This document shows, piece after piece, positions 624 through 20,000 of a DNA stretch of 20,000 nt. The notes beneath the pieces are model-generated. The model was not told where the DNA came from. It did no database searches and worked only from the letters and a program-made list of their open reading frames with translations. Position 1 is the stretch's first letter. Every line of letters starts with the position of its first letter. This DNA is from an uncultured virus (IMG/VR IMGVR_UViG_3300006173_000005). Its lineage: Duplodnaviria > Heunggongvirae > Uroviricota > Caudoviricetes. Made by a program: the position numbers and the translations under genes. The stretch lies in IMG/VR virus record IMGVR_UViG_3300006173_000005. The stretch is one strand, 5' to 3'.

Positions 624-812
624 ATGTCTAAGCTCTCTGAACTGAACCAAGCCAATAAACGTATCGCTGAAAAACTCTCAACTGGCAAGTTTAAGGATAC
701 TGGCGTTAAGTATAGTGCGGAACAAGCAGTGGCCGATCATATCAATCCTGCCCTACGCTTGACTGCACAAACATCAACCAATGGTCAATTAACATGGAAA
801 CAAGGTAGCTAA
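624..812 (+). CDS. Hypothetical protein (62 aa)
   Basis: RBS-like AGGGTG; first gene after P1. Confidence 0.7.
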   Translation: MSKLSELNQANKRIAEKLSTGKFKDTGVKYSAEQAVADHINPALRLTAQTSTNGQLTWKQGS

Positions 813-814
813 CA

Positions 815-1063
815 ATGAACAACAAATATTTCTGCCCTTGCTGTGGACATTTTTACGGTCAAGATGATAGCGATGGGCATATCGGCGTTGATAAGATGAT
901 TAGAGTACGGGATAACAGCATCGTACTTATGCTTACATGCTGGAATAGCGATTGTACTTTAAACACAGCAACAACAACCATACGCAGTCTTGAGAATGGC
1001 GATTTATGCGAACGCTTTGAGTGTTGCGAATCGTTTGATTATCAGACCGGATTATCTAAATAA
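815..1063 (+). CDS. Cys-rich, putative zinc-binding hypothetical protein
   Basis: CPCC...CWNSDC motifs; AAGGT RBS. Confidence 0.7.
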   Translation: MNNKYFCPCCGHFYGQDDSDGHIGVDKMIRVRDNSIVLMLTCWNSDCTLNTATTTIRSLENGDLCERFECCESFDYQTGLSK

Positions 1064-1072
1064 GGTCGTGAT

Positions 1073-1210
1073 ATGAACAGAAAACAGCGTCGGGCAGTTC
1101 TACACAGTCAATTGGTTGTCAAGCGATACATAGCCCAAAACTCTATGTATCATGCGTGGGAAGTTGCCCTACACCATTTGTCAAACCTTTATGGTCATAA
1201 GGATTTATAA
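1073..1210 (+). CDS. Small basic hypothetical protein (45 aa, MNRKQRRAVLH...)
   Basis: Fills the gap between neighbours; TAAGGT RBS; not in ORF track. Confidence 0.6.
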   Translation: MNRKQRRAVLHSQLVVKRYIAQNSMYHAWEVALHHLSNLYGHKDL

Positions 1211-1213
1211 ATC

Positions 1214-1873
1214 ATGTATAACAAACCGGATGAATTCGCTAACCTAGAGGAAACACTTATCCATTGGAAGTATCAATATGAGCGCTATCATACAACGCGA
1301 TTGCGATCATGGCGGACGATTACAGGTAAATGGATTGATCCCGCTTGCTTGTTTCAATTGGTAGAACTTGGACTAGCTACAGTCAAACTATTTAACGATA
1401 TGTGGCTAGACAATCAATTCTATTTAACCGACTTAACCCCATTGGTTGATCCCGATAACGACTATTGGTGGCAAAACGACAATAACGATTATCCACGCGA
1501 TACAGTTGAGTATATTGTCTATCTTGAGCCGCGTGTATGGGGCAAAAGACGCCAATTAGCCATTAATCTAATCTACGATCTAGGCAATGGTCATAATCCC
1601 CTAGATCGTATCAATTCAGGATTTTATGACATTGTACTGGATGCTGATATTTATCAATTCATCATGACCGAAGTCAAGCCGTTTAACGAAACATTGCAAT
1701 CTAATCTTGCCTGGTCGAGTATTCAACGTGAAATAGGCGAATTGAACCAAAAAACCGCTGACGTATATGCCTTAACTGATAATTTCAAATTAGAAGCTAA
1801 TAAGCTATCGAATTGGCGCAAGTCCCTGATAGATACAATGCTAATTTTGGTTTATGGGCGCAGCGATAACTAG
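1214..1873 (+). CDS. Hypothetical protein (219 aa)
   Basis: Long ORF with TAAGGA RBS; C-terminal coiled-coil-like segment. Confidence 0.8.
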   Translation: MYNKPDEFANLEETLIHWKYQYERYHTTRLRSWRTITGKWIDPACLFQLVELGLATVKLFNDMWLDNQFYLTDLTPLVDPDNDYWWQNDNNDYPRDTVEYIVYLEPRVWGKRRQLAINLIYDLGNGHNPLDRINSGFYDIVLDADIYQFIMTEVKPFNETLQSNLAWSSIQREIGELNQKTADVYALTDNFKLEANKLSNWRKSLIDTMLILVYGRSDN

Positions 1874-1896
1874 GTAGTACTTTAGTACCAATTCTA

Positions 1897-1951
1897 TTGA
1901 CAACCAATCAAGAGCACTTTATACTAGTAATCATAGTAAGGTTGATGATTA
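1897..1951 (+). promoter_or_regulatory. Early promoter P2 with AATCA boxes and TAATCAT-N10-ATGATTA inverted repeat
   Basis: TTGACA(1897-1902)-17 bp-TATACT(1920-1925)AGTAATCATAGT; downstream part identical to P1. Confidence 0.85.
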
Positions 1952-1970
1952 ATAAGGAATAAGGTGTTCT

Positions 1971-2132
1971 ATGTCTAAGCGCTCACTGTTCAAGATGATT
2001 TTAGCGGTTGCAGAACTAGACCGCGAATTCGCAATCTTTTACATCGAATCTGCGATCAAACAAGCTGATATTTGCCCCGATGAAAACGTTAGCTATTACC
2101 ATGAGCTATTAGCGCTCATTGAGGGTAATTAA
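1971..2132 (+). CDS. Hypothetical protein (53 aa, MSKRSLFKMILAVAELD...)
   Basis: TAAGGTG RBS; start context identical to gene 624; not in ORF track. Confidence 0.75.
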   Translation: MSKRSLFKMILAVAELDREFAIFYIESAIKQADICPDENVSYYHELLALIEGN

Positions 2133-2137
2133 CCAAT

Positions 2138-2434
2138 ATGACACAATCACAGCGTGCTTTACTTGCAGTGGCGGATATGACACAAGGTGAGTATCTAACC
2201 TATCTTGAAGATGAGTACATGATGCTGCTAAAGAGTAGCAATCCTTATCAGGCAATGGATAGCCTAATCGAATTATCCTCATTTATTGCTCGCATTGAGG
2301 ATATTACACCAAAGCAGTTTAACCACTATCGCAAGTTGTATTTACAGGAGAATCCGTATACACAAATCGAGGTTATCGCCAGTCCATTGCCAATTGCAGA
2401 AGAATCAACCGAAGTGCAGTTAAGTTTATTCTAA
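2138..2434 (+). CDS. Hypothetical protein with C-terminal QLSLF (beta-clamp-binding consensus)
   Basis: GAGGGT RBS; ends ...EVQLSLF. Confidence 0.75.
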   Translation: MTQSQRALLAVADMTQGEYLTYLEDEYMMLLKSSNPYQAMDSLIELSSFIARIEDITPKQFNHYRKLYLQENPYTQIEVIASPLPIAEESTEVQLSLF

Positions 2435-2488
2435 ATTTAACGGAATAGGCCATAAGTGAGGACTTATGGCTTAACCCGTGCAATTTAG
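2431..2488 (+). promoter_or_regulatory. Long imperfect intergenic hairpin (RNase III-type or stabiliser)
   Basis: CTAAATT..ACGG..GCCATAAGT-gagg-ACTTATGGC..CCGT..AATTTAG; no U-tract. Confidence 0.55.
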
Positions 2489-2520
2489 CACGATAAGCAA
2501 AGTATGAGGGAATAACTATC

Positions 2521-3009
2521 ATGTCTTACTCAAGTAAAGTTAACAACTGGCGTCGTGAATTTATGGACAAGTTCGGAAAAATGGCGGTGAAATATACTCC
2601 ATATACTGAACATGGCAATCTGATCGCCTACGATCAAGCGCGGGAAGTGGCTAAATTGATTATGCGTCATGCTGCTACTCACCAACGATTGCAAGAGGAA
2701 GAATGCAACGGCGTTGATTTTATGGCCCCATATTCATCAGCCTATATGCTGAATCTATACAATAATGATCGCCCCGCTCATACAGCGCTTATGGCAAAAA
2801 TTTCACAGCGCTATGATCGTTGGGAGAAACGTCTACAGCACCGCCAAGAACTAATTGAACGTCGTATCTTGCAACTTGCTGCACAATTTGGATTTAGTGC
2901 TGTGTTTGAAGGCGATCCACGCGGGGCAACCGTCAAAATCATATTTCCCGATGGGTCATACGATGACTCTGCACATGAGGGCTGGTGCGTTCCGACCAAT
3001 AATCGATAA
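2521..3009 (+). CDS. Hypothetical phage protein (162 aa, C-terminal GDPRG motif)
   Basis: GAGGG RBS; long ORF. Confidence 0.8.
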   Translation: MSYSSKVNNWRREFMDKFGKMAVKYTPYTEHGNLIAYDQAREVAKLIMRHAATHQRLQEEECNGVDFMAPYSSAYMLNLYNNDRPAHTALMAKISQRYDRWEKRLQHRQELIERRILQLAAQFGFSAVFEGDPRGATVKIIFPDGSYDDSAHEGWCVPTNNR

Positions 3010-3013
3010 TCTC

Positions 3014-3072
3014 GTTTAATCCCTCACACACTGCGCATTAAGGTAATAGTGCGCAGTAGTGAGCGAATAAGC
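3014..3072 (+). promoter_or_regulatory. Long imperfect intergenic hairpin (RNase III-type or stabiliser)
   Basis: CTCAC..ACTGCGCATTA-aggtaa-TAGTGCGCAGT..GTGAG; ends just before the AAGGA RBS. Confidence 0.55.
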
Positions 3073-3088
3073 ATAAGGATAACGCACC

Positions 3089-3445
3089 ATGACCACCAAC
3101 GATATTGAAATTTTAGCCCTAGCCTATAAAGCCTCTCAAGCATGGCGCGAATATGCTGCAATGCGTGCTATCGTGGATCGGGCAGAAGAGTATATGAATT
3201 CAATTCCATTGCTAAATAATCCTAAAGACAATTTTGATGAATACGAAGCTGCATACAATATCTTGTGCGATTTTAGGGTAACACTAGACTGCTACGCCAG
3301 TGTGCGCGATAACGCTTTTCTTAACTGGCGTCACAAACTGCCAGAGATGAATAGTTTCATCGCTTACAATCGCTGTAACACAATGGCGCGACAATATGAA
3401 ACACTGCTACAAAACAGCTATCTACAGTTTATCAAGTCGGTTTAA
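3089..3445 (+). CDS. Hypothetical protein (118 aa)
   Basis: TAAGGA RBS. Confidence 0.8.
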   Translation: MTTNDIEILALAYKASQAWREYAAMRAIVDRAEEYMNSIPLLNNPKDNFDEYEAAYNILCDFRVTLDCYASVRDNAFLNWRHKLPEMNSFIAYNRCNTMARQYETLLQNSYLQFIKSV

Positions 3446-3458
3446 GGACTATACGCTC

Positions 3459-3749
3459 ATGTATAAGCAGATTTATAAAAATCAATATGGTATGCACCGC
3501 AAAAATAAGACGCTATGTACTCCTGATGATAGCTGCCCTGTTGGTGGACGTAGTAACTTACATCACGTTATGCAAGCTGCTTATAAAACCTATGTATACG
3601 AGCGCTGTTATCTGTGTGATCCACTAACTTTTATGGATCGTTATCCGGTTGAGTACATTAAGCAGCACATGGACTATTTCAAGCAAGAAATTAGAAACAC
3701 TTATCAGCTATCCAATAGCTTCAAGTATAGCAAAGCAGCACAAGGATAA
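3459..3749 (+). CDS. Hypothetical protein (96 aa, Cys/His-containing)
   Basis: Start moved to ATG 3459 (TAAGGA RBS) from the track's 3396. Confidence 0.7.
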   Translation: MYKQIYKNQYGMHRKNKTLCTPDDSCPVGGRSNLHHVMQAAYKTYVYERCYLCDPLTFMDRYPVEYIKQHMDYFKQEIRNTYQLSNSFKYSKAAQG

Positions 3750-3757
3750 GGTGTACT

Positions 3758-4846
3758 ATGTCTCAGGTGGAATTAAAACAAGTAAACATATCAGATGTTC
3801 GAATCCGGTTTAACTACCGAGAAGAATATAATCAAGAATTCCTCTCATGGTTAACTGATCAAATTGCCACTAAGGGTTTTAATCCCGCTAAACCATTGGA
3901 CGTTTACCTTGAAGACGGTATCTACTGGATTGTAGATGGCAATACGCGCTATACAGCCGCTATGCGTGTCGCACTAGCAAAGCCCTATACACTCTATCCA
4001 GAATGTCCCATATGGGTAGCTGTACGCCGACATAAGCCTAGCGACGCTGAATTTGCACTATACAGCGCGCAGGGCAACGAAACTAACCGTGAGGTTGATA
4101 TTGTCTCTCAAGCAAAGAATTATCAACGCATCCTAGACGGCGGTCTGACCATTGCCGATATTTGTAAGCAACTAAACCACACGACTACCTATGTTGAAGA
4201 TAGACTTGCTATCCTTAAACTGGCAGATGGTATTCAGGATTATGTCAAAAAAGGCAGTTTAACTATTAAGTTTGCCGTAACCATGTCCAAGCTAAATTTC
4301 AACCGCCAATGGATTGCATTTAAGGCTTACAACTTACGCAATCTCAAACTGTGCGATTTTGAAGATATGGTCAACGATTTATACATGCAGCAAGAAAAAG
4401 AGAATCAAAAAGACTTCTTTGGTCTGATGTCAATTGAAGAAATAGAGGCAAAAGCGCAAGAACTCGCCAGCACTATACAGACCACCAAGACACCAAAGAT
4501 CAGCGACTTAGAAGCACAGCTAGAGCTAGAGCGCAAAGCACGGCTAGAGGCTGAACAAAAAGCACTAGCCGAAGCACAGGAGCGCGAACGCATCTATAAG
4601 GCTGGCGAACAGCTATACAATCGCTATACAGCCCTGCTTAAAGAATTCGAGTACCAAAAGACTACACTCAATCTACTCGAAGTCCATAACGCAGCACTTG
4701 AGATACAACTAGAGACACCAAAATCGAAATCTACCAAACGCACCAGCAAAGCTAAACAGGCTTCTCTCAATTTCGACGAGATGACAGAAGAAGAAAAGAT
4801 TAAGTTTATCGTCAACAATCCAGACCTAATCAATCCGAAGGACTAA
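3758..4846 (+). CDS. ParB/Srx-like N-terminal domain protein with HTH and coiled-coil tail
   Basis: 'FNYRE', 'PLDVY...YWIVDGNTRYTA' and 'N..R' ParB-N motifs; HTH 'TIADICKQLNHTTTYVEDRLAIL'. Confidence 0.85.
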   Translation: MSQVELKQVNISDVRIRFNYREEYNQEFLSWLTDQIATKGFNPAKPLDVYLEDGIYWIVDGNTRYTAAMRVALAKPYTLYPECPIWVAVRRHKPSDAEFALYSAQGNETNREVDIVSQAKNYQRILDGGLTIADICKQLNHTTTYVEDRLAILKLADGIQDYVKKGSLTIKFAVTMSKLNFNRQWIAFKAYNLRNLKLCDFEDMVNDLYMQQEKENQKDFFGLMSIEEIEAKAQELASTIQTTKTPKISDLEAQLELERKARLEAEQKALAEAQERERIYKAGEQLYNRYTALLKEFEYQKTTLNLLEVHNAALEIQLETPKSKSTKRTSKAKQASLNFDEMTEEEKIKFIVNNPDLINPKD

Positions 4847-4852
4847 ACTATC

Positions 4853-5356
4853 ATGACCACCACATTACTACTACCCGCTACAGCCTCACGCACCAAACAC
4901 GAACGCCGGATGATTCTTTGGGCGCTTGCCAAAGCTGGCAATAACGTCAAAGGTAATAGTCCACGCCAGTACGATACAAATTGTCATTATCCTGTTATTT
5001 ATCTGCCTGCGCCTATACAGCCTATCAGCGACGATCCATTTGAATCCGATGAAGCTGATATCGTAGCGACCTACGATGGGGCTTATTGCAGCATCCGCGT
5101 ACTTATCGGTAGACTGCTGCCACAAAGCACCCAAAACGCTCTCTTTACTCGCATCGGTACAATTGGCTCTCATATCGCCCGATGCACCGTTAATCTGTCC
5201 ACAAACGCCAATAACACCGTACTGGTTATTACACCTAACAAAACTATACAGGCCCGTGAAATCGACACCCTAAAAGCACTGGCGGTTTCCGTTGTACGTG
5301 GCTTTATCATTGAACTCGATAACACACCTGTCGCTATACAGACCAGTCTATTCTAA
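4853..5356 (+). CDS. Hypothetical protein with C-terminal QTSLF (clamp-binding-like)
   Basis: GAAGGA RBS; ends ...AIQTSLF. Confidence 0.75.
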   Translation: MTTTLLLPATASRTKHERRMILWALAKAGNNVKGNSPRQYDTNCHYPVIYLPAPIQPISDDPFESDEADIVATYDGAYCSIRVLIGRLLPQSTQNALFTRIGTIGSHIARCTVNLSTNANNTVLVITPNKTIQAREIDTLKALAVSVVRGFIIELDNTPVAIQTSLF

Positions 5357-5376
5357 GTTGTAACCATTGGCGACAG

Positions 5377-5417
5377 TTGACAAGTAATCATTAAACGGCT
5401 ATACTAGAAATCAAGAT
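5377..5417 (+). promoter_or_regulatory. Early promoter P3 with AATCA boxes
   Basis: TTGACA(5377-5382)-17 bp-TATACT(5400-5405); AGTAATCA and AGAAATCA boxes at the same positions as in P1/P2. Confidence 0.85.
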
Positions 5418-5433
5418 AAATTGGGAGGTAAAC

Positions 5434-5649
5434 ATGAATCGCACCGTCAAAGAAATTATTAGGCTGCACAAGTCCGGTTACACAAACCATCGTATCGCAG
5501 AAGCGCTGAATGTAGAGCATGGACTTGTGCGCGACACCATCAATAAGTTGTACGACCAGAAAGCCCAAGTAGGTCAACACAAAGACCTAGCCAAGAATAC
5601 GGCTAATTATCGAACCGCATCAACACGCAAAGCAAAGAACAGGGGTTAA
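5434..5649 (+). CDS. Small HTH DNA-binding protein
   Basis: GGGAGG RBS; 'IIRLHKSGYTNHRIAEALNVEHGLVRDTI' HTH pattern. Confidence 0.8.
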   Translation: MNRTVKEIIRLHKSGYTNHRIAEALNVEHGLVRDTINKLYDQKAQVGQHKDLAKNTANYRTASTRKAKNRG

Positions 5650-5651
5650 CC

Positions 5652-5903
5652 ATGAAGCGAATTGCTATTGCTACATTCATTCTATTTGTCGCATTGTTCT
5701 GTCTGACAATGCAAAGCGACACAGAACTATCTTATACATGCCAACTTAACAAACAGCAACTACAAGTCATCGCGCTACTCAAATCGCGTAGTGACACACC
5801 TGCCAATTTTATCAGCGCAGAACAAGCGCGATTCTGCGATGAAAACAAAATTCGCTCCATGATGAATATTTCACACAGTGAGCCTGTCTACAATGACCAG
5901 TAG
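5652..5903 (+). CDS. Signal-peptide/membrane-anchored hypothetical protein
   Basis: MKR plus hydrophobic stretch IAIATFILFVALFCL. Confidence 0.7.
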   Translation: MKRIAIATFILFVALFCLTMQSDTELSYTCQLNKQQLQVIALLKSRSDTPANFISAEQARFCDENKIRSMMNISHSEPVYNDQ

Positions 5904-6456
5904 TACTATACTTGCAAAACCTATACAGTCTACAAATGTAGACGGCGCTATGCAGGAACTACGAGCGCTGCTCCTACTCAGTAACGCACCAGCCGTCGAA
6001 GTAGACTACTATACAGCCCGATTAGACGCACTGGCGTTCGTTAGCCTGCCAGATCGCCAGCCCGATGAACCTGACATAGCAATCGCATGGGCTTATGGTC
6101 TGCTTTCAGTGATTGGCGTAGACCCCTATTATCCTGCCCAGAAGGGCGACCAAGCCTTCTGGTTATCCGATGGTGGTCAACTACTGGCAGGCGTGCTATA
6201 CAACGCCTATACGGGCCGATTGATAGCCATTAAAGATGCAGCGGAAATGTTGGGAATATTCCCACAGAACATCGGGCGCTGGGTAAAGCCCGGAATGCTG
6301 ACTGCTGTACCACTACCGCGCTGGACGCAGACCAAGTGGAGCGCCTATTACCGTGAACGTCGTGGGGATACTGAGCGCGTCCATTATATGCTCGTGCGCA
6401 GTGAAGTGATGAAGCTCAAACGGCATCGCACCCAAGCAAAAAAGCACAAGGAATAA
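5878..6456 (+). CDS. Protein with excisionase/MerR-like HTH (start uncertain)
   Basis: 'IAIKDAAEMLGIFPQNIGRWVKPGML...RSEV'. Confidence 0.7.
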   Translation: MSLSTMTSSTILAKPIQSTNVDGAMQELRALLLLSNAPAVEVDYYTARLDALAFVSLPDRQPDEPDIAIAWAYGLLSVIGVDPYYPAQKGDQAFWLSDGGQLLAGVLYNAYTGRLIAIKDAAEMLGIFPQNIGRWVKPGMLTAVPLPRWTQTKWSAYYRERRGDTERVHYMLVRSEVMKLKRHRTQAKKHKE

Positions 6457-6460
6457 CACT

Positions 6461-6694
6461 ATGGACACCGAATGGTATCTACGAGGTCGGGGTGTCACGA
6501 TTAAGGCAGGTGCAGTGTCCAAGTTTGGCGCAAAGTTTGAGCGCGATACGAAGGGTACACTGGCCCGTGACACCGAACCTGATGCAGAGAAATTCTCAGT
6601 ATGGCTATACGAGCCGGTGAGTAATCGGTATATCGACAATGTGAAAACTGTCGTTATACCACGTGAATTCGTTGAATTTGAGCAGGGAGGATAA
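6461..6694 (+). CDS. Hypothetical protein (77 aa)
   Basis: AAGGA RBS. Confidence 0.75.
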   Translation: MDTEWYLRGRGVTIKAGAVSKFGAKFERDTKGTLARDTEPDAEKFSVWLYEPVSNRYIDNVKTVVIPREFVEFEQGG

Positions 6695-6817
6695 ATGTTT
6701 CTATTACTAGTATTATCCATCGTGGTTCATTTTGGTCTATACATCCATCGTCGTGCGCAGTTCCAAAAGCGCGCCAACATTCCTATGCCAACGCATCAAC
6801 TACCGAAGTATCGCTAA
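6695..6817 (+). CDS. Small single-TM protein (40 aa, MFLLLVLSIVVHFGLYIHRR...)
   Basis: GGGAGG RBS; abuts the previous stop; not in ORF track. Confidence 0.65.
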   Translation: MFLLLVLSIVVHFGLYIHRRAQFQKRANIPMPTHQLPKYR

Positions 6818-6858
6818 GTCTATACTGTCCATATTGCACAAAGAAGAAATATCTAATC

Positions 6859-7095
6859 ATGACCAATCATATTACTCATCAAGCGCTCGATCAGAGTGAA
6901 ACTTACTGCTATTCATGGTGGGAAGATGGCACAGTTACCCGCAGTTTACTTGATCGTCCTACCGCACACAGAGATGAACACGGCTATTACGTTTATGGCT
7001 CACTTCGCATCAATCCACATGTACCAGTGATTCCACCGCCCACTTGGAACAATGTCGAATTCAAGTCCCGCATTGCAACTAAGTATGCCAAATAA
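6859..7095 (+). CDS. Hypothetical protein (78 aa)
   Basis: ORF with purine-rich leader. Confidence 0.7.
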   Translation: MTNHITHQALDQSETYCYSWWEDGTVTRSLLDRPTAHRDEHGYYVYGSLRINPHVPVIPPPTWNNVEFKSRIATKYAK

Positions 7096-7178
7096 TCTCC
7101 ACAATCACTAACAATCATTGGGGGCTGCGCATCCATGATTACGCAGAATTTCAGCAATAAGAAGGAAATCTAACTATC

Positions 7179-7472
7179 ATGTCTGACAATCTACAGGTTT
7201 ACGTTATCACTTGGCACGGCGTTGTTGTGGCAATATTCACCGACCAACGGCAAGCCCTGTTACATGCACGTGGACTAGCGCGTACAGAAATGGGTGATTA
7301 TCGAGAGCAAGGGTCTCCTGAACATTTCATGAACTTCTATAACGAAATAGGAGAAAACGCACCAATCACTTTATCTGGACATCTAGTTAATGCACCAGAC
7401 AGATTAGATGAAGCCTATCACGATGCTGCCATCTCGTATGAAATAGCTCAACGTATCGTATCAGGCTACTAA
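7179..7472 (+). CDS. Hypothetical protein (97 aa); predicted target of the sRNA at 12550-12637
   Basis: GAAGGA RBS; 'VYVITWHGVVVAIFTDQRQA' beta-beta-alpha pattern. Confidence 0.8.
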   Translation: MSDNLQVYVITWHGVVVAIFTDQRQALLHARGLARTEMGDYREQGSPEHFMNFYNEIGENAPITLSGHLVNAPDRLDEAYHDAAISYEIAQRIVSGY

Positions 7473-11068: not shown

Positions 11069-11599
11069 CGCATACAGCGTATCTGTCAACGCTTCATAAC
11101 CTATCGCAATGTCAATCGCATCAAGTCTATCCATCCCACTGTAGAACAACCTTCGTTCTTTATAATCCATTTGACGCCGAAGCATAAAGCGTTCTAATTT
11201 CACGGTAGATGTAAAAACATCGCCAATCACCCGCTCTAACTTCCACTCGTAGCCTTTTTGTCGATGCCTATCCTTATTGGTTAATGCGTACACTAGTCGC
11301 CACAGGGTAGCCTTAACGCCCTTGCTTGGCTCCCAGTGCCCAGTATACCGAGGTTGTTCCCAATCATCGAAAAAGAATTGAGTGCGAACAATCGTATCAT
11401 TCACAACGCGCAAATTAGATTGCGGATTGAATTGAGGATACTTGCCTTTTACGTAACGATTGAACTCATACAGTTCGTGAACTAGATAATCTATTCTGCC
11501 GATGACATTGGAGCCGTATTCACTTTTAATCCAATTGCAAAATTGAACGTTTACATCAGGTGGATAACTGGAGATTGTGTTATTATTGAGTGCAGACAT
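11042..11599 (-). CDS. Hypothetical protein (185 aa)
   Basis: AAGGA RBS; own -10 (TACAAT 11672-11677) and leader hairpin. Confidence 0.8.
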   Translation of the reverse strand: MSALNNNTISSYPPDVNVQFCNWIKSEYGSNVIGRIDYLVHELYEFNRYVKGKYPQFNPQSNLRVVNDTIVRTQFFFDDWEQPRYTGHWEPSKGVKATLWRLVYALTNKDRHRQKGYEWKLERVIGDVFTSTVKLERFMLRRQMDYKERRLFYSGMDRLDAIDIAIGYEALTDTLYALNYCRWGV

Positions 11600-11663
11600 G
11601 AGGCTACTATCCTTGTGTCTATGAGATTACTTGCATGTTGAGTGCGGTAATCTCGTTTCATTT
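11578..11663 (+). ncRNA. Predicted cis-antisense RNA (~11593-11663) to the 185-aa gene start
   Basis: Extended -10 TGtTATTAT (11578-11586); GAGATTAC...GTAATCTC hairpin with a weak U-tract. Confidence 0.45.
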
Positions 11664-11704
11664 GATGCTTAATTGTACACCCAAATCCACTTACGCGCTA
11701 CAAC

Positions 11705-11800
11705 AACAAAAGCCGCCTACGTGTACCTCCGCAGGCGGGTCTTATCCACAGTCACCATAACCGTCAAGTCGAGGTGGTTGCGAATGATGAGTTAATTGTA
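11705..11800 (-). ncRNA. Candidate sRNA B (~11788-11705)
   Basis: -10 TACAAT 11795-11800; 5' CAUUCGCAACCACCUC is antisense to an RBS+AUG; terminator CCGCCTGCG/CGTAGGCGG plus U-tract. Confidence 0.5.
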
Positions 11801-11805
11801 CACCT

Positions 11806-11885
11806 AAAACACAAACGGCGATACGTGAATATCGCCGCTTATGCCTGTCAAACATTAGCAAAGGAGGTTGCTGGTAATCATTATA
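11806..11885 (-). ncRNA. Candidate sRNA A (~11873-11806)
   Basis: -10 TATAAT 11880-11885; AGCAA-CCUCCU-UUGCU stem-loop; terminator GCGGCGATA/TATCGCCGT plus U-rich tail. Confidence 0.55.
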
Positions 11886-11890
11886 CCATG

Positions 11891-11926
11891 AAAACGAAAA
11901 CCACTAACTAGTTAGGTTAGTGGTTT
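11891..11926 (-). terminator. Terminator downstream of tRNA-Met
   Basis: AAACCACTAAC/GTTAGTGGTTT plus TCGTTTT. Confidence 0.75.
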
Positions 11927-11960
11927 ATCCGAGTCGTGGAGCCTCTTTAATATTGGGTTG

Positions 11961-12032
11961 TAGCGCGGAAAGGAATTGCACCTTCGACCTTCTGGTTATG
12001 AGCCAGACGAGCTACTACTGCTCTACCCCGCC
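11961..12032 (-). tRNA. tRNA-Met (CAT), initiator-like body
   Basis: GGCGGGGTAGAGCAGTAGTAGCTCGTCTGGCTCATAACCAGAAGGTCGAAGGTGCAATTCCTTTCCGCGCTA folds as a cloverleaf; CCA not encoded (CAA). Confidence 0.85.
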
Positions 12033-12171
12033 ATAAACTCGCTCACGGTTTTACAAAGACGTGAGCGATAACCTTTGCTGCCATTTACCGTCATACAGTG
12101 ACCATAGTAACGCACCTAGCAGATACGTCCTATATCCTGCTGCTTAGGTCAGGATACTTACTACATGGTTA

Positions 12172-12200
12172 ATCATAATCCCTACTGCAAAATCTGTCAA
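12172..12200 (-). promoter_or_regulatory. Sigma70 promoter for the structured leader and tRNA-Met
   Basis: TTGACA-17 bp-TATGAT. Confidence 0.8.
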
Positions 12201-12206
12201 CCGCAC

Positions 12207-12245
12207 AAAAAAACAACCCGCAATCCTCTATGGGTATCGCAGGTT
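12207..12245 (-). terminator. Terminator after the two tRNA-like genes
   Basis: AACCTGCGAT...ATTGCGGGTT plus GTTTTTTT. Confidence 0.75.
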
Positions 12246-12271
12246 ATTACGCACAGTCATCGTGTGCGATG

Positions 12272-12341
12272 TTGGGATGGCAAGAATCGAACTTGCGACG
12301 ACGGAATCGCATCCGCTGTTTTACCACTAAACTACCACCCA
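12272..12341 (-). tRNA. Aberrant tRNA-like gene; 6-nt anticodon loop (TGCGAT), identity undetermined
   Basis: Intact D arm (GTTT/AAAC) and T arm (GCAAG-TTCGATT-CTTGC); two acceptor-stem mismatches. Confidence 0.65.
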
Positions 12342-12392
12342 CGTTCACAGTATAAATCTACAGTTGCGCACCTGTTTTACTCCGTGAACTTG

Positions 12393-12467
12393 TCGGGCTG
12401 CGCAGATTTGAACTGCGCTCCTATAGGCTCTAAATCCTATCGTGCTAACCGTATACACCATTACCCG
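12393..12467 (-). tRNA. Aberrant tRNA-like gene with Pro-like acceptor; 8-nt anticodon loop (ATTTAGAG)
   Basis: CGGG.../...CCCG-A acceptor, GTGT/GCAC D stem, ATAGG/CCTAT stem, CGCAG-TTCAAAT-CTGCG T arm. Confidence 0.65.
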
Positions 12468-12549
12468 CATACATGGGACCAACGACCAAACCCTACAACC
12501 CATGTACTGCTCAGTACGATATTGGTCTCATGCGCCTATCATACATCAT

Positions 12550-12637
12550 AAAAACGGAACGCGCCACACTCTATTGGGGGAGTAGGTGGCGCGTCCGCTA
12601 TCGTAAAGCAATCAGAAGGAAACTAATCATCACGACC
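12550..12637 (-). ncRNA. Candidate trans-acting sRNA E, antisense to the RBS/start of gene 7179
   Basis: Strong promoter upstream; GC-rich terminator 12555-12597 plus TTTTT; 12607-12634 matches 7153-7181. Confidence 0.65.
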
Positions 12638-12643
12638 AATTAC

Positions 12644-12672
12644 AGTCTACTTGGTTATCGTTTGCGTGTCAA
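12644..12672 (-). promoter_or_regulatory. Sigma70 promoter of sRNA E
   Basis: TTGACA-17 bp-TAGACT. Confidence 0.8.
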
Positions 12673-12771
12673 CAAATACCCTATAACCGATACAATGGCA
12701 AGTGTTACAGCGAATGTTACACAGTGCCAGGTGAGTAGTTCCCCAGGGCTTACTGAGAAAACGGGAACCAT
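12655..12771 (-). CDS. Small TM peptide (38 aa, MVPVFSVSPGELLTW...GYLLTRKR)
   Basis: Hydrophobic helix with basic C-terminus; AGGGA upstream; not in ORF track. Confidence 0.5.
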   Translation of the reverse strand: MVPVFSVSPGELLTWHCVTFAVTLAIVSVIGYLLTRKR

Positions 12772-12851
12772 ACCATCCCTACGATGAGTGTAATCAGGCA
12801 CGCGATAATAATCGCTAATACATTGTAAATATGTTCACGCTTGATTGTCAT
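12750..12851 (-). CDS. Small TM peptide (33 aa, MTIKREHIYNVLAIIIACLITLIVGMVWFPFSQ)
   Basis: ATGA overlap; GGAGGG upstream; not in ORF track. Confidence 0.6.
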   Translation of the reverse strand: MTIKREHIYNVLAIIIACLITLIVGMVWFPFSQ

Positions 12852-12976
12852 AGATTACGGAACCCTCCACTTACTTTTGCCAACCAGTTGACGACAATAA
12901 CACTAACGATAATTAGCGTCAAAATGGCCCCAGCGAGGCCACCGCAGACTAGCAATAATAAATCGTGTACATTCAT
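12848..12976 (-). CDS. Small TM peptide (42 aa, MNVHDLLLLVCGGLAGAILTLIIVSVIVVNWLAK...)
   Basis: ATGA overlap with the coiled-coil gene; not in ORF track. Confidence 0.6.
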   Translation of the reverse strand: MNVHDLLLLVCGGLAGAILTLIIVSVIVVNWLAKVSGGFRNL

Positions 12977-13731
12977 GGCATCGTGGTCGTTTCAGGGGGT
13001 GCAGTAGGCTTCTGGGCGTCAAGCTGGTTCTGTAAATCTCTCACTTGACCTTGTAACTGCCTTACTTGCGTCTCAAGCTGAACCACTTTCTCATTAGCTG
13101 TTGCTAAATCTTTTTCGACTTGAGCTTTTTCAGTCACCGCCGTCGCGTACTGCCTTTCAAGTTCCACGATACGCGCCTTCGCCAACTCAAGTTCAATCTG
13201 AGTAAGTCTCAATTTCTCTAGCAGTTCGGACTTAGTAGTCTCAAGTTCGACCTGTGCTTCGGTGAGCGCCTTTTGCGTTCCTCTTAGTGCATCATCCATA
13301 CTGCCCACCTTTTCCACAAGCTCGGCTATTTGGGCATCCCGCGCTTGGCTATCCAACGCTCGCTGCTTGAGCAAAGAATCAACTTCACTGGTAAACTTCT
13401 TTATCTTATCTTCGTTGTCTTCAACCCGTTTGTGGTAGGCTTGGTTTTCAGTGAGAACCGCTGCTTTTTGTGCAGCGAGTTCCCGGTTTGCATCTGCGAG
13501 GTAGGTAAGTACGGATGTCATCTGACTGCTAAACTGATTGACCGTTGTCAGCGTATCTTGAGCAGTGCTTTGCGTGGCCTGCGCCGTCACTTTCGCTTCA
13601 ATCGCTGGCAGTTTTAATTGATCAATCAGACGTTCAAAATTCTTTTGATTGCGTACTAGAAATAAGGTAATGGGGCCACCAACTGCAATTACACTACCAA
13701 TGAGTGTCCCAATAATAACATTAACGTCCAT
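12973..13731 (-). CDS. Membrane-anchored long coiled-coil protein
   Basis: N-terminal TM helix followed by a long heptad-rich region. Confidence 0.85.
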   Translation of the reverse strand: MDVNVIIGTLIGSVIAVGGPITLFLVRNQKNFERLIDQLKLPAIEAKVTAQATQSTAQDTLTTVNQFSSQMTSVLTYLADANRELAAQKAAVLTENQAYHKRVEDNEDKIKKFTSEVDSLLKQRALDSQARDAQIAELVEKVGSMDDALRGTQKALTEAQVELETTKSELLEKLRLTQIELELAKARIVELERQYATAVTEKAQVEKDLATANEKVVQLETQVRQLQGQVRDLQNQLDAQKPTAPPETTTMP

Positions 13732-16580: not shown

Positions 16581-16678
16581 TTGACAAATCCCTTTACCTA
16601 TCCTACACTGTATACGCCAATGAGTAACCTGCGTAACAAAACACGCGAGATATCAACCACCTCGCGTGTTTCTATTTT
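16581..16678 (+). ncRNA. Counter-oriented promoter with ~63-nt sRNA (~16616-16678)
   Basis: TTGACA(16581)-17 bp-TACACT(16604); AAACACGCGAG/CTCGCGTGTTT hairpin plus CTATTTT. Confidence 0.6.
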
Positions 16679-18418: not shown

Positions 18419-20000
18419 CTAAAAGTCGCCCCACATTTCACTTGGATAATAATCAGGTTCGTATTCTGGATAGTCGGGTTCGTCATCGTCACTTGGCTGC
18501 TCAGTTGGCTCAATGCTGACCACTTCACCGCCATAACTGCACATGAGTTCAGCCACAATTGGGTCGTCAATAATCGCCTGTAACTTGTCATCTTCAAGAT
18601 TTGCCAGATACGCGAGTGTGTCGCAGTGGCACGCCTCACCGTCCTTTTTGCACCAGCAACCTAGTAGCTTGCCACGCAGTTCAGGAATGCGTCGTAGCAT
18701 CTCTGGATTGCTAAATAGGTGTACGCGGTACTGCGTAATAACTTCCTCGCGAGTGCCATCTTCGCCTATCTTGTAGGGATTGTGCCAATAGCTTTCAGCG
18801 AAACCATGTGAGAAGTTGGCGCGACCACAATACATCTTCTGTTCATTTGGCGTGGACTTCCATAACTCGCTACGCACATCGCAAACAACGGTGTATGGAA
18901 TAGTGTTATTATCATTGACCATTTCATCGGACGCGGTAACTTGGTCAGATTGCTCAGTCTGACTATCTTCCCACTGCTTATTAACTATTGGGTTATCCGA
19001 TACACCGAACGGTGTATCATCCATTGGTTCGTCTAACATAGCATCCTCCTGATTTTTACCATTTAGCAAGTCGAACATCTCCCATTGTACTACCATTTCA
19101 ATTGGTAGCGTTGGGTCAACTGGCACACATTCTGTGTCGATTAACGCATGGAACTGACCTACCCACTTTTCAGCGGGCTTGCGCTGCTTGCGTTGTTTCT
19201 TTTCTTTCACTGGCGCTTGCTCGACAATTGCGGGCAGTGCTGTAGTCTCAACAGGTTTCTTTTTGCCGCGTGATTTCTTTTCCGCTGGCGGTCTCTGCTC
19301 AGTAATCAAGTACTGTCGGTTAGGTTGATGATAGCGAATGGATAGGTTCAGCCCAGCGTTACAAGCCTCGGCTACGAACTTCTTCCAATCTTTTGTGCCA
19401 AGATTACAGATTGCACCAGCGCTGGTCACAATGGCCTGTGGAAATCCCTTAGCGGTTGCATCCCAATCGGTTTTACTTATCTTGCCAATACGCTCAATAA
19501 GCACAGTTACATCGTTGCTGGCGAGTGGAATATCAACATTCTGATCCTGTAGCACGCCAATGCCAGCATCTTTGAATATCGTGCGAATGGTAGAGGGTCG
19601 ATAGCCTAGCTTCTCTGACCATAGCTGCCATGACCACTGCACCTCGGTTAACCCTGTACGCTTTAGTTCATCCGTGATAATCGTGAGCGCCAGCGTCCGC
19701 ACATAGTTCTTACTTGTACCCCACGCCCGATTGAACAAGGGAGTAAACTTACCGTTGATGACCTGCCCATACATCCGACGATAGACTTTCTGGCACTCGC
19801 CATACGCCTGATGGTAGCCAGTTTGGGATTTCACCTTATCGCCATATAATTCATTCAGTGTCGCCACCGATTCCGCAGGATTAGGATTGTTTAGCTGCTC
19901 AAGGAAGGTTTCATAGGGCGGTGCAACAATAGTCACCTTTTCTTTGAACTTTACAGATAGTCGCTTGGATACCCTGGCAAAAACATCGAGCGACAATATC
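18419..20000 (-). CDS. Large protein (5' end probably outside the window) with C-terminal DUF4326 domain
   Basis: 'YCGR...WHNPYKIG.DGTREEVI..Y...LRGKLLGCWC....CHCDTL'; frame is open to the window edge; HTH-like 'WSEKLGYRPSTIRTIF'. Confidence 0.8.
   Translation of the reverse strand, partial: ILSLDVFARVSKRLSVKFKEKVTIVAPPYETFLEQLNNPNPAESVATLNELYGDKVKSQTGYHQAYGECQKVYRRMYGQVINGKFTPLFNRAWGTSKNYVRTLALTIITDELKRTGLTEVQWSWQLWSEKLGYRPSTIRTIFKDAGIGVLQDQNVDIPLASNDVTVLIERIGKISKTDWDATAKGFPQAIVTSAGAICNLGTKDWKKFVAEACNAGLNLSIRYHQPNRQYLITEQRPPAEKKSRGKKKPVETTALPAIVEQAPVKEKKQRKQRKPAEKWVGQFHALIDTECVPVDPTLPIEMVVQWEMFDLLNGKNQEDAMLDEPMDDTPFGVSDNPIVNKQWEDSQTEQSDQVTASDEMVNDNNTIPYTVVCDVRSELWKSTPNEQKMYCGRANFSHGFAESYWHNPYKIGEDGTREEVITQYRVHLFSNPEMLRRIPELRGKLLGCWCKKDGEACHCDTLAYLANLEDDKLQAIIDDPIVAELMCSYGGEVVSIEPTEQPSDDDEPDYPEYEPDYYPSEMWGDF

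Follow-up and report, generated by a model that had tools for sequence, protein, structure and literature searches.

A candidate trans-acting small RNA complementary to translation starts in the genome of an uncultured tailed phage

The window analysed here is a stretch of 20,000 nucleotides (20 kb) from a 64,787-base (64.8 kb) phage contig, and was scanned on both strands (40 kb). Its plus strand carries a block of small early-type genes (624-7472) downstream of three TTGACA-17-TATACT promoters, with a ParB-like gene just upstream of gene 4853. Among the minus-strand genes are those for two Bro-N/antirepressor-like proteins, a DNA methylase and a response regulator, together with three tRNA-like genes. 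The combination of ParB-like and antirepressor-like genes suggests a temperate state. Two tiny membrane-peptide ORFs of 38 and 42 aa on the minus strand (12771-12655 and 12976-12848, respectively), an unusual cargo for a phage, are both preceded by a stand-alone response regulator and a coiled-coil protein with a membrane anchor. The promoter of the unit considered below overlaps the end of the first of these ORFs, and the unit comprises the following features.

12644-12672, minus strand: sigma-70-type promoter, presumably active, with -35 TTGACA (12672-12667), a 17-nt spacer and -10 TAGACT (12649-12644)
12550-12637, minus strand: predicted 88-nt two-hairpin RNA, with a probable start at ~12637
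12628-12637, minus strand: 5' arm (nt 1-10), predicted to pair in register over start codons, with a G-U pair at the U of AUG
12600-12636, minus strand: 5' hairpin (nt 2-38), the reverse complement of an SD, a spacer and a start codon
12616-12622, minus strand: exposed anti-SD loop UUUCCUU (nt 16-22), probability unpaired 0.99
12624-12630, plus strand: copy of the TAATCAT box, a possible operator, within the 5' arm of the RNA
12598-12633, minus strand: 11-codon mini frame with a GUG or AUG start, lacking an SD and running to the terminator foot
12550-12599, minus strand: GC-rich intrinsic terminator, stem 12599-12553 (~-27 kcal/mol) followed by five U
12572-12579, minus strand: terminator loop CCCCAAUA, probability unpaired 0.97

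Both signals that the initial annotation had placed around this unit, a minus-strand promoter TTGACA-17-TAGACT and a GC-rich, U-tailed terminator, are present at these positions. The 88-nt RNA folds with -37.7 kcal/mol (z -6.35, matched by none of 200 shuffles) and consists of two hairpins in the MFE as well as in the centroid structure. Its 5' hairpin, which includes four G-U pairs, is specific to the minus strand (-9.3 versus 0.0 kcal/mol on the plus strand), and an equally stable 5' hairpin was found in 42 of 2000 shuffles. The loop UUUCCUU of this hairpin is the likely seed of pairing. The enclosed ~88 nt had been described as non-coding; the 88-nt unit stands, but nt 5-40 hold the 11-codon frame. 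Searches against Rfam assigned no family to the RNA, either over the whole window (E up to 1) or over 11600-12700 (E up to 10). The earlier proposal of a stand-alone RNA gene, with 7179 as the top-ranking target (see below), is supported in silico.

The promoter belongs to a strict class, TTGACA-17-TAnnnT, of which the window contains six members, whereas 200 shuffles gave 0.27 on average and never more than three; a loose promoter scan remained at chance level (42 found, 43.2 expected). Because its -35 box sits within the last codons of the small membrane-protein ORF (12771/12801-12655), the 88-nt unit doubles as the 3' UTR of the operon ending at 12655. The terminator, which is absent from the output of a simple terminator scan, probably also ends this upstream minus-strand operon. 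The position of the -35 box and the lack of another terminator in the scan therefore give the hairpin a role even without a small RNA. A further strict-class promoter (16581-16609, plus strand) opposes minus-strand genes and overlaps the start of gene 16579, from which a possible antisense transcript may arise.

The TAATCAT box has 13 copies in the window, seven of which lie within the regions of the six strict promoters, together 2% of the window (p = 2e-9). Copies are located at 564, 587, 1928, 1951, 5385, 11875, 12170 and 12624; the box is present at five of the six strict promoters and at the neighbouring unit B (see below), and it often overlaps or adjoins the -10 box. Since two of the promoter copies sit in untranscribed spacers, the box would act as DNA, and we regard it as a probable operator, with the HTH genes 5434 and 5878 as candidate binders. 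Some copies extend into a TAAT-N-ATTA palindrome, which we take to be reminiscent of Fur-family boxes. The box accounts for seven bases of the RNA, not for the 20-base match around the SD.

The initial annotation had aligned positions 12607-12634 with the translation initiation region of gene 7179 (7153-7181). This alignment holds, with identity at 24 of 29 positions and two differences that are compatible with G-U pairing, one of them in the AUG. No other local alignment of the RNA's 5' domain on either strand of the window scores as high, and neither 500 shuffled queries nor 60 shuffled windows reach it; when all 88 nt serve as the query, 10 of 500 shuffles do. The match coincides with a gene start and has the orientation required for pairing. 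The sites for which pairing is predicted are given here.

7153-7184, plus strand: predicted target 1, from the SD to codon 2 of gene 7179-7472 (28 bp, 3 G-U; hybrid -31.8, net -17.0 kcal/mol)
4831-4858, plus strand: predicted target 2, from the last ParB-like codons over the SD to the start of gene 4853-5356 (25 bp, 2 G-U; hybrid -29.8, net -16.8 kcal/mol)
6836-6864, plus strand: weaker predicted target 3, start of gene 6859-7095 (net -11.4 kcal/mol)
7117-7124, plus strand: possible second contact site on the 7179 leader, complement of the terminator loop and the adjoining C

The net score is the hybrid energy plus the opening cost of both partners, which amounts to ~10 kcal/mol for the RNA, and was calculated for 39 gene starts and for 2662 windows on both strands. 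The 39 starts were chosen by eye, with the starts of ORFs 11060, 18639 and 19996 covered by the window scan only. Over these starts the order is 7179, 4853, 6859 and 15201 (-10.1 kcal/mol), whereby two starts were misplaced by 3 nt in this scoring, in its shuffle controls and in the second early-block test, and correctly placed in the 5'-arm and hybrid-energy tests. The best non-self windows are 7179, 4853, an in-frame SD-5-AUG at 19039, 6859 and 15201. After correction for accessibility, gene 7179 thus heads the window targets as had been expected, and the weaker match that had been noted at 6859 is present at rank 4 of the non-self windows. The earlier view of one or two target genes is incomplete, as it missed the equally strong 4853 and the wider family of gene starts that the RNA mirrors. 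The predicted duplexes with 7179 and 4853 both begin 5' of the SD and include the AUG, in identical register at the start codon. The strong SD-5-AUG at 19039 lies on the minus strand within ORF 19996-18419 and would yield a 206-aa protein with a DUF4326 domain.

The fit to gene starts extends beyond these sites. When 7179 is excluded, the 5' arm can form at least nine of ten pairs at 8 of 38 starts and at 28 of the 725 ATGs elsewhere (p = 9e-5). Its fit to starts is equalled by 3 of 105 flank permutations. No specificity of the pairing for the early block was detected between the 18 plus-strand and 21 minus-strand starts (p = 0.30), nor in a second test (5 of 18 versus 4 of 21). The motif shared among gene starts is loose (AACTATCATG at three starts).

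Shuffle controls indicate that the pairing is stronger than a bare anti-SD would give, as supported in silico. In terms of hybrid energy, full shuffling reached the best target in 3 of 1000 cases and the best two in none; when only the flanks of the anti-SD core were shuffled the counts were 18 and 1, and with both the anti-SD and the TAATCAT box kept 43 and 9 of 1000. If opening costs, which weigh harder on the folded real RNA than on the shuffles, are included, the best one, two and three targets were reached by 16, 0 and 37 of 300 complete shuffles, and by 24, 3 and 82 of 300 shuffles in which the anti-SD was kept. With these costs counted, 7179 by itself has a narrower margin. From these counts we conclude that the signal rests on two strong targets, with 6859 being marginal.

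The terminator loop may make a second contact on the 7179 leader, which we regard as a lead only. The two contacts are in register, separated by 28 nt along the RNA and by 29 nt along the leader, and the match, which was noticed post hoc, has a p of ~0.01-0.06. The site itself is predicted to be paired in the leader (probability unpaired 0.002), and the hexamer core of the contact recurs at four other places in the window. The in-register similarity further upstream was equalled by 30 to 193 of 3000 shuffles, depending on which of four scoring schemes was applied.

The predicted target genes encode proteins of 97 aa (7179), 167 aa (4853) and 78 aa (6859), none of which has a match in Pfam, PHROG, NCBIfam or PADLOC. 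Membrane-spanning stretches are absent from all three, as the maximal 19-residue hydropathy is 1.09, 1.40 and 0.12, respectively, compared to 1.8-2.8 in the membrane peptides of the window. The suggestion that the targets might be toxic consequently finds no support in either family matches or membrane-spanning stretches. Two single-sequence models of target proteins have low confidence (pLDDT 54 and 50). The model of 7179 has no fold match at E up to 0.001, and that of 4853, the gene after the ParB-like gene, is a low-confidence alpha/beta model whose best fold match (Z 6.8) lies under the trust level. Atlas matches of the targets are under 0.9, and no weighty sequence match was found in the PDB.

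No homologue was recovered in the searches for relatives. Patterns of the exact RNA and of the terminator had no matches, proteins 7179 and 12973 identified no loci in viral contigs, and alignment A1 identified none in viral and genome contigs; its two loci in metagenome contigs were matched only via the coiled coil and were dismissed. The same applies to the single match of the early-promoter pattern, which is unrelated, and to six matches of the loop pattern, none of which shares genes or architecture. In a blastn search of 11500-13000 against phages, the best 20 of 284 records cover tRNA stretches only. Proteins 7179 and 11042 match only themselves, and the closest relatives of protein 12973 sit on contigs of 2.8-3.6 kb. 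One contig encodes a protein with 57% identity to the gene that lies 340 nt upstream of the unit. A search for the layout of promoter, anti-AUG and anti-SD gave three matches, of which only one resembles a small two-hairpin unit: at ~10010-9935 (minus strand) in an unrelated phage, ~78 nt accommodate a promoter, a hairpin rich in U and C, and a terminator whose tail is U8. This unit was rejected, as the complement of its loop is not enriched in its own genome (20 matches versus 22 for the control). Reads from one DNA run yielded five short phage pieces, none over the RNA.

On the sequence evidence available, we consider it moderately likely that the unit encodes a c4-like, trans-acting antisense RNA that would block translation initiation on multiple targets. 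In this process, the host sigma-70 polymerase would transcribe the 88-nt RNA from its early-class promoter, and transcription would end at the RNA's own terminator. The anti-SD loop could then nucleate on the AGAAGGA/GAAGGA of the 7179 and 4853 messages, after which the weak, G-U-rich stem would open and, according to the computed pairing, 25-28 bp would form over a stretch that begins 5' of the SD and includes the AUG. A duplex over both SD and AUG would be expected to block 30S loading. The terminator loop might, with weak indication, bind 29 nt upstream on the 7179 leader in the manner of the c4 a' loop, and 6859 and a few other starts would be paired less well. With an early-class promoter, synthesis of the RNA would begin immediately and its level would rise. 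It is conceivable that a stable RNA of this kind builds up after infection and damps 4853 and 7179 at later times, or alternatively that it keeps both genes silent in the temperate state; either timing is speculative. If true, a remote RNA that mirrors shared start regions would provide a protein-free means of timing or silencing early expression. Most phage antisense RNAs characterised so far target host messages or a single gene that adjoins or overlaps them, and the literature searched, with most subscription journals outside its range, contained no phage RNA that silences several early starts of its own phage in trans. The candidate would add to these the pairing with start codons, a possible c4-like second contact and a link to a promoter box.

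It has to be considered alternatively that the hairpin is a mere operon terminator, that the promoter serves the downstream tRNA genes by read-through and that the resemblance to gene starts arises as a side effect of an operator, the TAATCAT box behind the promoter, and an A-rich stretch. The concentration of TAATCAT in the strict promoter regions (seven of 13 copies), with two copies in untranscribed spacers, would be consistent with this, as would the lack of any other listed minus-strand terminator between 14694 and 11926 and the run of just five U after the stem. However, the copy at 12624 fits the flanks of the other promoter boxes poorly (-5.9, although the 564 copy is likewise low with -2.9), the pairing of the top two targets is still reached by only 9 of 1000 shuffles when box and anti-SD are fixed, and a second promoter-like motif 3' of the terminator could serve the tRNAs. 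As this explanation also leaves the strand-specific hairpin with its anti-SD loop unaccounted for, we regard it as rather unlikely. An origin as an inverted and decayed copy of an early-gene leader, i.e., an emptied promoter-terminator cassette in which the likeness to 7179 reflects DNA ancestry and not pairing, seems improbable. Such an origin is suggested by the weak in-register similarity upstream (30 to 193 of 3000 shuffles) and by the composition of 11600-12700 out of repeated promoter-hairpin-terminator modules, but the RNA matches 4853 as well as 7179 and gene starts in general, and the folding is confined to the minus-strand RNA. A leader origin would moreover be compatible with a present function.

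The exact end of the 11-codon frame at the start of the terminator stem, and two tRNA-like genes within the next 300 nt, might point to a leader or attenuator of tRNA genes, in which the near-leaderless frame is translated and a ribosome at its stop codon controls read-through. We consider this the least probable of the explanations, as the frame has no SD and no antiterminator was found: with the 3' side of the terminator blocked, the best fold reaches -13.4 versus -37.7 kcal/mol. Both the AUG and the hydrophobic codons are explained by the antisense sequence being rich in U, and the match to the targets would stay unexplained. Only slightly less improbable is a genuine small RNA with its main targets elsewhere, be it in the host, in the other 45 kb of the phage or in superinfecting phages, or one acting as a protein-bound guide. 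The general match of the 5' arm to gene starts is in line with targets outside the window. As to a guide, words around the anti-SD resemble, in our estimation, box C and box D, and this pair of words occurs once in the window, exactly at the RNA; yet 0.81 such pairs per window are expected by chance, and neither a second C/D unit nor an array nor, among 40 ORFs compared with Pfam, a Nop-domain match was found.

Returning to the preferred reading of a multi-target antisense RNA, the comparison with known systems gives partial parallels only. Small RNAs of type I toxin-antitoxin systems are encoded opposite or next to a gene for a small hydrophobic membrane toxin. The candidate shares with such antitoxins the predicted block of translation initiation, but it does not overlap a target and has several soluble-looking ones of 78-167 aa, so that a type I pair is not supported. 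The "type-I-antitoxin-like" label of the initial annotation accordingly finds no support, with 7179 and 4853 lying 5.4 and 7.7 kb away. Sar of phage P22 and OOP of phage lambda are likewise encoded opposite their targets. They resemble the candidate as short promoter-to-terminator antisense RNAs that control phage genes (PMC12197685). In contrast to their full complementarity, the candidate is remote and imperfect.

The closest parallel in design is c4 of phages P1 and P7, a phage RNA of ~80 nt that occludes the ribosome-binding site of a phage gene with one loop and contacts a site further upstream with another (PMC5320573, PMC12197685). The anti-SD loop of the candidate, unpaired with a probability of 0.99 and pairing in silico with the SD of 7179 and 4853, corresponds to the b' loop, and a further contact upstream by its second loop, with an identical 5'-to-3' geometry, is possible. 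The predicted RNA begins with GGU, which would fit the GGW start of a c4 RNA released by RNase P as well as a transcription start. Membership in the c4 family was nevertheless rejected, as there is no match to the Rfam c4 models and the candidate has two hairpins and not the three stem-loops P1-P3 described for c4 (PMC5320573). It further differs from c4 in having its own promoter and terminator where c4 is released from a precursor by RNase P, and in having several predicted targets, 5-8 kb away, with a pairing that extends through the AUG. The starts of the two Bro-N/Ant-like genes are absent from the 20 best windows, while the c4 target is an antirepressor message.

Other systems share single traits. 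The SAS motif of cluster K mycobacteriophages, in the portion of the report at hand, occurs at several gene starts and as a single reversed copy with no gene after it (PMC3203893); the motif of the present phage is loose by comparison, and for the reversed SAS that portion gives no RNA function. Mycobacterial 6C/B11 is a two-loop RNA that represses several messages through pairing of its exposed pyrimidine loops with their G-rich leaders (10.1101/2022.10.27.514065), but it is a host RNA with two long C-loops, whereas here one U/C anti-SD loop is combined with long stem-derived pairing. The loops UUUCCUU and CCCCAAUA are not two loops of six or more C, and with no Rfam match the candidate was not assigned to 6C/B11. 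Assignment to the TIGR or box C/D guides is not supported either, the single word pair being at chance level for the window and TIGR units consisting of two spacers between C/D boxes in an array (PMC12045711).

Further promoter-hairpin units lie in the neighbourhood of the candidate.

11876-11806, minus strand: unit B, extended -10-like motif at ~11889, hairpin with CCUCCU loop, long terminator-like hairpin
11790-11705, minus strand: unit C, promoter-like repeat, hairpin and terminator (z -3.8)
12169-12100, minus strand: unit D, between promoter 12200 and tRNA-Met, 8-bp hairpin with a 10-nt loop

By alignment, none of the three units has a window target above shuffles, and unit D has no Rfam match. 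The CCUCCU loop of unit B (fold z -5.2) is a perfect anti-SD, and among the starts of the window this unit pairs best with 6695 (-11.4), which encodes a 40-aa membrane peptide with a basic tail; unit B is a second sRNA candidate, perhaps directed against host messages. The 5' part of unit C is the reverse complement of an SD-7-AUG. In unit D the nested fold is weak (z -1.5), and its loop can pair over 9 bp downstream (-11.0 kcal/mol), which would make a pseudoknot possible. It is tempting, though in our view unlikely, to regard the tRNA cluster as holding a small battery of independently transcribed anti-initiation RNAs on a timer set by a shared box. In such a battery, the 88-nt RNA would mirror SD, spacer and AUG and clamp the 7179 leader with two loops, and its neighbour at 11876-11806 would display the perfect anti-SD loop. 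TAATCAT would couple the promoters of the RNAs to the early promoters, so that one repressor would free both, and the RNAs would later silence the early genes, amounting to an RNA-based timer of a kind undescribed in the literature searched. Two of the tRNA-like genes of this cluster (12271-12341 and 12392-12467, minus strand), to which ARAGORN gave no assignment, have abnormal anticodon loops of ~6 and ~8 nt and could represent degenerate, decoy or frameshift-type tRNAs.
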